DNA from: Escherichia coli
GTDB lineage: Bacteria > Pseudomonadota > Gammaproteobacteria > Enterobacterales > Enterobacteriaceae
Strand: one strand, 5' to 3'
DNA: 64,000 nt
NCBI RefSeq assembly: GCF_024223415.1
Contig: NZ_CP100500.1
Positions 7,701-10,700 of the stretch are shown here, piece after piece (the stretch's first letter is position 1; each line of letters opens with the position of its first letter). Made by a program: the position numbers.

Positions 7701-10700
7701 AATTTACGCGCGGGATAATTGGCGGTGCTGATCACCCCCCGACGTTCGCGGCTGCCGCCAATAGCAATAGGGATATCGCGCAGGGCGGGATTGTCGCGCA
7801 TCTCCACTGCGGCGAAAAAGCAGTCCATATCCACATGAATGATTTTACGCATTACTCACCTCTCAACACTGGTAAAGTATACAGTGATTTCAGGGTTTGA
7901 GAAATGCGTAAAGATTCAGCATTTAGCGCGTTCGCTGCGAAAGCACCTGCTGCTTATCCAGCTTTTGCACCAGCGGCTGCACCACTTTATCCCCATGCTG
8001 ACCAAAGTATTGATACAGCGTATCGGACGCACTTTTGGTCAACACCATAATCTCAATACGCCGATTGCCCGCGCTTTGCGGATTTTTGGCATCCAGCAGC
8101 ATCTGGTCCGCCATTGCGCTTACCTGCATCACTTTATCTTCCGGCATTCCGGCCTCTTCCAGCACCCGACGAGCCGAAAGCGCGCGGTCACCCGAAAGGT
8201 TCCAGTTGTTGTAGATATTGTTTTTGTAGGCCATCGCATCGGTATGCCCGGTAATAATAATTTTATTATCGAGCGAGTCGAACACTGGCGCTAACTCCAC
8301 CAGCAGCGTTTTAAAGAACGGCATAATCTGCGCGCTGCCGCGTTCGAACATATTGCGATTCTGGTCGTCTTTAATCAGCACGCGTAATCCCTGCGGGACA
8401 ATCTCCATCTCCAGATTCGCTTCCATATGCGCATCACGGGCAATGGTGTTGATACTGGTTGCCAGCTCACCAAGCTCGGTGGCGGATTTCTTCTTCAGCA
8501 GCGCCGTTTTCTCGTTGACGTCGCGCGCTTTTTTCTCCGTCTCTTCCGGCACCGCCACGGTGGCAGGTTTTGGCGGATGAGACGGGCTGATTTTATTTAA
8601 CGGCGACAACCCGCCACCGTTGAAAATCGACTGCCCGTGCAGCGCGGCGATAATGCTTTCACGCTCGGATTTACTGACGCTGTTGACAATCAACTTTATC
8701 GTCGTCACCAAAGGGGCCGAGCGTATTTCCGAGGTTTCTGCCCGCTTTACCCTGGACGCGATGCCCGGCAAACAGATGGCGATTGACGCCGACCTTAACG
8801 CCGGGTTGATCAACCAGGCGCAGGCGCAAACCCGGCGTAAAGATGTCGCCAGCGAGGCCGATTTCTACGGCGCGATGGACGGGGCATCGAAGTTTGTGCG
8901 CGGGGATGCCATCGCCGGGATGATGATTCTGGCGATCAACCTGATCGGCGGCGTCTGTATCGGGATCTTCAAATACAACCTGAGCGCCGATGCCGCCTTC
9001 CAGCAATATGTGCTGATGACCATCGGCGACGGCCTGGTGGCGCAGATCCCTTCCCTGCTGCTCTCCACGGCGGCGGCGATTATCGTCACCCGCGTCAGCG
9101 ACAACGGCGATATCGCCCATGACGTGCGCCACCAGCTGCTGGCAAGCCCGTCGGTGCTCTACACCGCCACCGGGATCATGTTCGTGCTGGCGGTGGTGCC
9201 GGGGATGCCGCACCTGCCGTTTTTGCTGTTCAGCGCCCTGCTTGGCTTTACCGGCTGGCGGATGAGCAAACGCCCGCAGGCGGCGGAGGCGGAAGAGAAA
9301 AGCCTCGAAACGCTGACCCGCACCATCACTGAAACCAGCGAGCAACAGGTCAGTTGGGAAACCATTCCGCTGATCGAGCCCATCAGCTTAAGCCTCGGCT
9401 ACAAACTGGTGGCGCTGGTGGACAAAGCGCAGGGCAACCCGCTCACCCAGCGTATTCGCGGCGTACGGCAGGTGATATCCGACGGTAACGGCGTGCTGCT
9501 GCCGGAGATCCGCATTCGGGAAAACTTCCGCCTTAAGCCGAGCCAGTACGCCATTTTCATCAACGGTATTAAGGCTGATGAAGCGGATATTCCGGCGGAT
9601 AAACTGATGGCCCTGCCCTCCAGCGAAACCTACGGCGAGATTGACGGCGTGCTGGGGAACGACCCGGCGTACGGGATGCCGGTCACCTGGATCCAGCCCG
9701 CGCAGAAAGCGAAAGCGCTGAATATGGGGTATCAGGTGATCGACAGCGCCAGCGTGATTGCCACCCATGTGAACAAGATTGTCCGCAGCTATATTCCTGA
9801 TTTGTTTAACTATGATGACATCACGCAGTTGCATAACCGTTTGTCGTCGATGGCACCGCGCCTGGCGGAGGATTTAAGCGCGGCGCTCAATTACAGCCAA
9901 TTGCTGAAAGTGTACCGGGCGCTGCTGACCGAAGGCGTTTCCCTGCGCGATATCGTCACCATCGCCACCGTGCTGGTCGCAAGTAGCACGGTGACCAAAG
10001 ATCATATTCTGCTGGCAGCTGATGTGCGCCTGGCACTGCGGCGCAGCATTACCCATCCGTTCGTTCGCAAGCAGGAGCTGACGGTGTATACGCTGAATAA
10101 TGAGCTGGAAAATCTGCTGACCAACGTGGTGAATCAGGCGCAACAGGGCGGGAAAGTGATGCTCGACAGCGTGCCGGTCGACCCGAATATGCTCAACCAG
10201 TTCCAGAACACGATGCCGCAGGTAAAAGAGCAGATGAAAGCGGCGGGGAAAGACCCGGTGCTGCTGGTGCCGCCTCAGCTGCGCCCTTTGCTGGCGCGTT
10301 ATGCAAGGTTGTTTGCGCCGGGGCTGCATGTGCTGTCGTATAACGAAGTGCCGGATGAGCTGGAGTTGAAGATTATGGGGGCGTTGATGTAGGCATGATA
10401 AGACGCGTCAGCGTCGCATCAGGCATCGGTGCATAACCGCCGGATGCGGCGTGAACGCCTTATCCGGCCTACCGTTCAGGCGCAGGTTTGTAGGCATTAT
10501 AAGATGTGCCAGCGTCGCATCAGGCATCCGCGCACAATTGCCGGATGCGGCACAAGTTTGTAGGCATGATAAGACGCGCTAGCGTCGCATCAGGCATCTG
10601 CGCACAATTATAAAATGATACGCTCCCCAGCACTCAAATCCGTTATGTCTCCCGCCCAATTGATGGGATATAACCCTCGCGCGACATCGCGATGGAACGT

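Follow-up and report, generated by a model that had tools for sequence, protein, structure and literature searches.

A 64,000-nt stretch of an Escherichia coli chromosome (contig NZ_CP100500.1; hereafter the window) carries, between dinB and yafL, two long open reading frames (ORFs) that overlap head to head, one on the minus strand (7923..8813, 296 residues) and one on the plus strand (8620..10392, 590 residues). The locus raises the question of whether these are two genes or the ends of something lost and, if the latter, how the two ends came to be joined. The initial annotation had read them as fragments of lafU and lfhA left by a large internal deletion of the Flag-2 lateral flagellar cluster, as in K-12. 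Our analysis led to the same identification. With a probability of about 0.88 the locus is a non-functional Flag-2 remnant, the allele that K-12 also carries as the pseudogenes lfhA (fhiA) and lafU (mbhA), formed by illegitimate recombination with a probably single origin and later exchange. In E. coli this feature has been described before, and the origin of the junction does not alter its identity. The only surprising elements are the identity of the junction across families and the undecayed state of the remnants.

A Flag-2 deletion scar between dinB and yafL

The deletion endpoints were mapped by BLAST and then by an ungapped three-way register against the intact Flag-2 clusters of SMS-3-5 and a sequence type 131 (ST131) strain. 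In SMS-3-5 the same site holds rayT, flhA/lfhA (697 residues), 42 further genes, lafU (307 residues) and dinB, and the ST131 strain likewise carries an intact cluster at the dinB / rayT-yafL site. BLAST assigned window positions 6797-8694 to dinB and the 3' part of lafU, and positions 8680-10539 to the 3' part of lfhA. In the three-way register the lafU-side match ended at 8691 and the lfhA-side match started at 8689. The deletion junction is the ATC at 8689..8691, a microhomology common to both parental ends. It lies within CTGTTGACAATCAAC (8680..8694), a hybrid of two imperfect direct repeats whose lafU-side parent, CTGTTGACAATCCAC, and lfhA-side parent, CTGATGATCATCAAC, match at 11 of 15 positions; the parental repeats and their shared ATC were the same in SMS-3-5 and ST131. 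Compared with SMS-3-5 the window lacks 36,815 bp, and compared with the ST131 strain 38,138 bp. Alignment to an intact cluster, the check initially proposed, therefore mapped both endpoints and found the interior absent; a deletion of 36.8-38.1 kb with a junction identical to the K-12 type bears out the proposed origin. The initial estimate of ~40 lost genes holds as the loss of a large cluster and is refined to 42 whole genes relative to SMS-3-5, none of which (0/42) was present at the window locus. In a complete Flag-2 system some 39 conserved flagellar genes separate lfhA from lafU.

At this one junction lafU, in antisense at codon 52/53, is joined to lfhA, in sense at codon 130/131, and the 5' ends of the two remnants abut directly. 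As lafU and lfhA are the last genes of outward-transcribed operons, an internal deletion leaves two 3' ends head to head. The remnants were 93-96% identical to the 3' parts of the intact cluster's terminal genes, and the claim that both lack genuine 5' ends was upheld. The lafU' remnant (7923..8691, minus strand; a lateral-flagellar MotB homologue) comprises the 3' 769 nt including the shared bases, encodes residues 53-307 and the stop codon, and keeps the OmpA-like domain. The lfhA' remnant (8689..10392, plus strand; a lateral-flagellar FlhA homologue) comprises the 3' 1,704 nt and encodes residues 131-697 and the stop codon in an open frame. Relative to the 307- and 697-residue proteins of SMS-3-5, LafU residues 1-52 and LfhA residues 1-130 have been lost. 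In Pfam searches the minus-strand ORF matched only the OmpA-type (peptidoglycan-binding) domain (PF00691, E 1.3e-14), and the plus-strand ORF matched positions 99-656 of the 657-position FHIPEP (FlhA) profile (E 2.5e-189); the start at profile position 99 indicates that the N-terminus of the lfhA' product is missing. Intact LafU relatives contained both PF13677 (MotB_plug) and PF00691, and scar-length relatives contained PF00691 only. The lost part of LafU, '...AWKVAFADFTLAMMALFMTLW', is the MotB-type transmembrane/plug segment, which carries the proton-conducting Asp. That the locus instead holds two full-length, unrelated and truly overlapping genes is refuted and has next to no probability left: the mechanical ORF list alone favours it, while the FHIPEP match starts at 99 and both ORFs align to the 3' parts of longer genes whose 5' parts other strains carry here.

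The initial annotation had also placed an overlap of the two fragments at 8620-8813. This 194-bp interval is real as ORF geometry but is not the junction, the true point being the 3 bp at 8689-8691. Each frame reads past the junction into the antisense of the other remnant, which places 'MKIDCPCSAAIMLSRSDLLTLLT' before LfhA I131 and 41 non-LafU residues before LafU I53; on sequence grounds the overlap is not a gene overlap. The lafU coding sequence (CDS) of the RefSeq/PGAP annotation (7923..8708, minus strand; 261 residues, not marked as a pseudogene) is a chimeric ORF made by the deletion and not a working gene. Its GTG start lies 17 nt into lfhA-derived DNA, and the GTG and first 6 codons are in antisense lfhA. 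RefSeq annotates lfhA' as an N-terminally incomplete FlhA pseudogene; its G+C content was 0.56-0.63, compared to 0.42-0.53 nearby. A promoter scan of the remnants returned weak 9/12 matches only, and every Flag-2 promoter lies within the missing interval. We infer that neither remnant is able to function in a flagellum and that neither has its own promoter or start codon. The window strain is unable to make Flag-2 flagella, and the two ORFs are pseudogene remnants.

The scar shares its site, orientation, remnant lengths (1,704 and 769 nt) and junction sequence with the lfhA (fhiA, b0229)/lafU (mbhA, b0230) scar of K-12, from which it differs by ~4% nucleotide divergence of the window allele and by the absence of yafN-yafO beside dinB. 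The K-12 scar is the one described by Ren et al. in 2005, as cited in PMC6993521 and PMC3032704. The intact clusters of E. coli 042, SMS-3-5, ST131 and W (lfhAB-lfiRQPNM-lafK-lfiEFGHIJ ... lafABCDEFSTU) have the same flanks, dinB and rayT/yafL, but also the 36.8-38.1 kb interior that the window lacks. The lost cluster has its functional homologue in the laf system found in Vibrio parahaemolyticus and Aeromonas, where, too, FlhA_L and MotB_L (LafU) are the last operon genes; those systems are intact and have been shown to work, whereas nothing functional is left at this locus. Precise excision of composite transposons and microhomology deletions likewise remove a large segment between short direct repeats, but the scar lacks long inverted repeats and a transposase, and the exact homology spanning 37 kb is just 3 bp.

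The scar within and beyond E. coli

The region was 100% identical to NZ_LR134092.1, the chromosome of E. coli NCTC10444, and a 100-bp probe across the junction matched without a break in 4,085 of the 5,426 complete E. coli genomes (~75%), including MG1655 and C600 derivatives (99%). From this identity and recurrence we conclude that the arrangement is not a product of chance. In ~1,160 records the probe halves lay at separate places, both genes being unbroken, and a small remainder had one half only. We compared nine scar genomes spread over the similarity range. The junction bases were identical in all nine, which represent diverse lineages, and match those of K-12; in the K-12-type genome (locus L002) lafU and lfhA occupy 4224-5009 and 4975-6693, the same coordinates as in the window locus, where 4224-5009 corresponds to window 7923-8708. 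A different, IS1-associated loss was found in strain A30 (NZ_CP092500.1), one of the records with a single probe half, which keeps lafU to lafA, followed by the insertion sequence IS1 and then dpaA, and has also lost rayT, yafL and dinJ-yafQ. The published picture is in line with these findings. PMC6993521, citing Ren et al. 2005, describes direct repeats that bound a deletion lying inside lfhA and lafU, and reports that 76 of 100 E. coli carry truncated copies; K-12 and B keep only fhiA and mbhA (PMC3032704); flag-2 is a recombination region in ST131 (PMC4637896); and an ST131 H22 strain has remnants of ~1700 bp and 769 bp (PMC5369007), in agreement with the 1,704 and 769 nt of the window.

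Both frames were open and free of indels in 9/9 scar genomes. Pairwise ratios of nonsynonymous to synonymous divergence (dN/dS) among scars were 0.033 for lfhA' and 0.045 for lafU', compared to 0.021 and 0.017 among intact alleles, with a synonymous divergence (dS) within E. coli of ~0.21 (lfhA') and ~0.13 (lafU'). Nucleotide diversity of the remnants among strains was high, at ~0.03-0.08 per site. Singleton changes, counted as nonsynonymous:synonymous, were 8:52 and 8:22 in scar alleles and 2:25 and 1:9 in intact alleles; relaxation of the scar alleles is only mild. Decayed forms do occur in the protein database, as E. coli scar-type LfhA' sequences with in-frame internal deletions or duplications and as shorter truncations. 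Single-nucleotide polymorphism (SNP) haplotypes beside the junction were common to scar and intact alleles, as expected if the two states recombine.

A degenerate junction pattern was scanned against one genome per GTDB species and matched in four genomes, two of Escherichia (E. albertii and one other), one of Citrobacter (sp. MGH106) and one of Kluyvera (K. ascorbata ATCC 33433). In the last two the locus was only 78-80% identical to the window, and the dinB / yafL context was kept in Citrobacter. Protein searches found scar-length LfhA ORFs down to 70% identity, and a head-to-head OmpA-family/FHIPEP pair was present in DNA of Atlantibacter subterranea and A. hermannii, of Enterobacter sp. 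Ap-916, which matches Cedecea in Flag-2 type and locus context, of Ewingella americana including the type strain (Yersiniaceae), and of two metagenome lineages. In all non-E. coli scars the lafU remnant runs from Ile53 and the lfhA remnant from Ile131 (INF[I/V]VVTKG), even though Flag-2 types differ completely in the bases kept to the left of the junction. Across at least eight named genera, belonging to two families, a 37-kb surface-organelle cluster is found either intact or as one specific scar. PMC6993521 reports 'flag-2 deleted' strains in several genera, with both states at intermediate frequency in several and remnants chiefly in taxa where intact loci occur as well; in the parts read it makes no remark on the junction being the same across genera.

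Between genera dS was saturated and dN/dS was 0.02-0.05 for lfhA' and 0.05-0.09 for lafU'; the leftovers of the scar evolve as if still in use. Each scar lineage had intact relatives at the same locus within about 90-97% amino acid identity. One lineage (P0092) had seemed to lack them, an absence that would have favoured functional remnants, but this was overturned when the same 90% cluster was found to hold intact Ewingella proteins of 694-697 residues. The intact LafU of a 'K. ascorbata' (P0160) was of a type (IMGAVTEE...) that differs from the scar type of K. ascorbata ATCC 33433 (IVNSVSKS...). LfhA codon 131 was ATT in the Atlantibacter, Ap-916 and Ewingella scars and ATC in every intact allele read.

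The pattern scan also matched two contigs of metagenome-assembled genomes labelled Clostridiales and Collinsella (SFGJ01000062.1 and JAIJJM010000815.1) with ~96% identity to the window. These are almost certainly mis-binned Escherichia DNA.

Origin of the junction

The E. coli hybrid junction is a quasi-palindrome (GTTGA-CAA-TCAAC), and among all 15-nt window pairs between lafU and lfhA the 11/15 repeat pair from which it derives falls within the top 2.2e-4. Judged from the aligned bases, the placement of the junction in above-chance similarity fits illegitimate recombination at microhomology, and recombination at the ATC within the imperfect direct repeats probably made it. In this case the junction would have arisen once, and the allele would have been passed on vertically and by homologous recombination. 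The two remnants could serve as homology arms for exchange, and exchange with intact alleles would keep them resembling working genes. That one old deletion allele has co-existed with the intact locus, swapping flanks with it, is the explanation we lean towards, at slightly better than even odds. Within lafU and lfhA, 424 window pairs are equal to or better than the one used and 77 exact direct repeats of >=8 bp occur, so independent re-use of one pair is not expected, and its chance re-use in ~10 lineages is out of the question. Other deletions have given other junctions, such as the IS1-associated one in A30, which we likewise count in favour of a single origin. The ATT at LfhA codon 131 in the scars of four lineages is a weak hint of common descent. 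An old allele accounts for both the identical junction and the shared haplotypes, and fits the occurrence of remnants mainly where intact loci exist (PMC6993521). Low dN/dS would also follow, as a substitution has to reach fixation in a pool to which selected intact genes also belong. An argument that low dN/dS limits each remnant to <2% of its ancestry as a scar was dropped, since with recombination between states dN/dS stays low whatever the scar frequency.

Several results weigh against a single origin. A 'virtual scar' assembled from the ends of the intact ST131 cluster was 100.0% identical over 2,470 nt to the real scars of SE15 and other strains, and also to that of GN03204. The same codon-level junction occurs in lineages that are at synonymous saturation and have different sequence to its left (Citrobacter, Kluyvera, Atlantibacter, Cedecea-type and Ewingella), and lfhA' is undecayed, its 567-568 codons staying open in each lineage read apart from the frameshifted E. 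albertii. Scars have diverged from each other exactly as intact alleles have: the E. coli and Ap-916 scars shared 69.7% amino acid identity and the intact E. coli and Cedecea davisae alleles 70.0%, with a proportion of nonsynonymous differences (pN) of 0.208 in both comparisons. A single origin needs a polymorphism older than these genera and the two families, or repeated transfer between genera, as well as conversion tracts reaching up to the base beside the junction.

These same observations are what would be expected if the Flag-2 core had been cut repeatedly at the same two nucleotides, by a hot spot or a site-specific process, leaving scars that are independent and young. Such recurrent precise excision gives the simplest account of undecayed remnants and of equal scar-scar and intact-intact divergence, and it readily explains one junction in ~10 lineages of two families. 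It is also favoured by scar and intact states on identical or nearly identical haplotypes: besides the ST131 match, the lfhA' allele of K-12 had intact counterparts at 99.8%. The best counterpart was at 99.3% for SMS-3-5 and at 97.9% for the window's own allele. Scar diversity in E. coli equalled that of intact alleles up to ~60 bp from the junction, and the intermediate frequency of both states in several genera (PMC6993521) points the same way. We nevertheless consider recurrent excision unlikely. No recombinase gene (0) was annotated in the two intact clusters, SMS-3-5 and ST131, although a recombinase could act in trans. The retained lafU-side half-site varies among Flag-2 types (GCTGTTGACA, CCGCCCCCATA, GAGCTTAGA and GCATTAATA), the Cedecea-type and Ewingella lineages offer just 2-3 bp of microhomology, lafU and lfhA contain many better slippage substrates, and the shared ATT at codon 131 hints at common descent. 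Slippage across 37 kb is moreover expected to be extremely rare. A variant, in which the core is a precisely excisable and perhaps re-insertable 37-kb cassette with a position-specific LafU-I53 / LfhA-I131 junction, appears to us just as improbable. It predicts a circular product with the joint ...CTGATGATC-ATC-CACAGCG..., and here the lack of an annotated recombinase in the two intact clusters goes together with a lafU-side att-like half-site that is not conserved. A search of the Flag-2 ends for an att-like core, terminal inverted repeats or a unique slippage substrate found only the ATC/AT microhomology and two minor features, an 8-bp palindrome on the lfhA side (ATGATCAT) and a 21/30 sense-to-sense similarity of the transmembrane-coding segments of the two genes, present in E. 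coli and not conserved in Cedecea. None of the three accounts for the fixed cut.

A further explanation of the undecayed remnants is that they are working genes, a truncated FlhA-like and a truncated MotB-like protein that purifying selection has maintained since an old deletion. Nearly all lineages keep both frames open, intergenus dN/dS is low and PGAP calls lafU' an intact CDS. We regard this as very improbable. The start codon is not conserved, the mechanical ORF starts differing in every lineage, and the promoter matches are weak. LafU' has no membrane or export segment, although its remaining domain presumably acts in the periplasm. Constraint is the same as in the intact genes although all partner proteins are gone, and the remnants are identical to local intact alleles. 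Disrupted forms exist (the E. albertii frameshift and the in-frame deletions, duplications and shorter truncations in E. coli), and according to PMC6993521 the remnants occur mainly where taxa have intact loci as well. Were the scar one ancient allele, it would represent an unusually old presence/absence polymorphism kept with recombination between its states, which would also be new relative to the portions of the literature consulted. Were excision to recur, an unrecognised precise-deletion mechanism would be at work, one that would explain both the undecayed remnants and the shared haplotypes.

Borders of the Flag-2 site

The gene order in the window is pepD, the prfH'/rtcB' pseudogenes, yafP, dinB, the lafU'/lfhA' ORFs, repetitive extragenic palindromic (REP) clusters, rayT, yafL and dinJ-yafQ. 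In Escherichia dinB (6797..7852, minus strand) forms the conserved left border of the Flag-2 site. The right boundary is formed by rayT, a REP-associated tyrosine transposase gene (10608..11105, minus strand) with REP clusters on either side, together with yafL (11382-12191), which follows it. The REP-type palindromic units (GCCGGATGCGGCG...CTTATCCGGCCTAC) were clustered at window 10393-10600 and 11200-11390. Their number differs among strains, and like units lie within the intact Flag-2 cluster of SMS-3-5 (locus L003, ~30120-30400).

These borders are a patchwork of toxin-antitoxin modules. The yafN-yafO pair is absent between dinB and yafP in this strain, where dinB and yafP overlap by 4 nt (window 6797-6803); 753 bp of SMS-3-5 and K-12 are missing, and the two alignments overlap by 7 bp. 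The same arrangement was found in ST131 strain 18044 and in strain A30. A hicA-hicB pair takes the place of rayT between lfhA and yafL in E. coli 00_3230 and SJC33, and dinJ-yafQ is absent from strain 18044. A second small deletion scar was present at window ~5824-5830, within the rtcB'/prfH' pseudogenes (5600-6050), where an rtcB-family gene is fused to prfH with the loss of ~1,020 bp relative to SMS-3-5; here too the alignments overlap by 7 bp. This pseudogene pair is also found in K-12. Both genes are intact in SMS-3-5 and strain 18044, and A30 has an intact prfH and a frameshifted rtcB.

An NlpC/P60 peptidase gene resembling yafL adjoins the Flag-2 locus or its scar in nearly all lineages read, Ewingella being the exception. 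In Cedecea-type loci it lies on the lafU side, in Escherichia, Citrobacter, Kluyvera and Atlantibacter on that of lfhA, and it may be part of the Flag-2 island.

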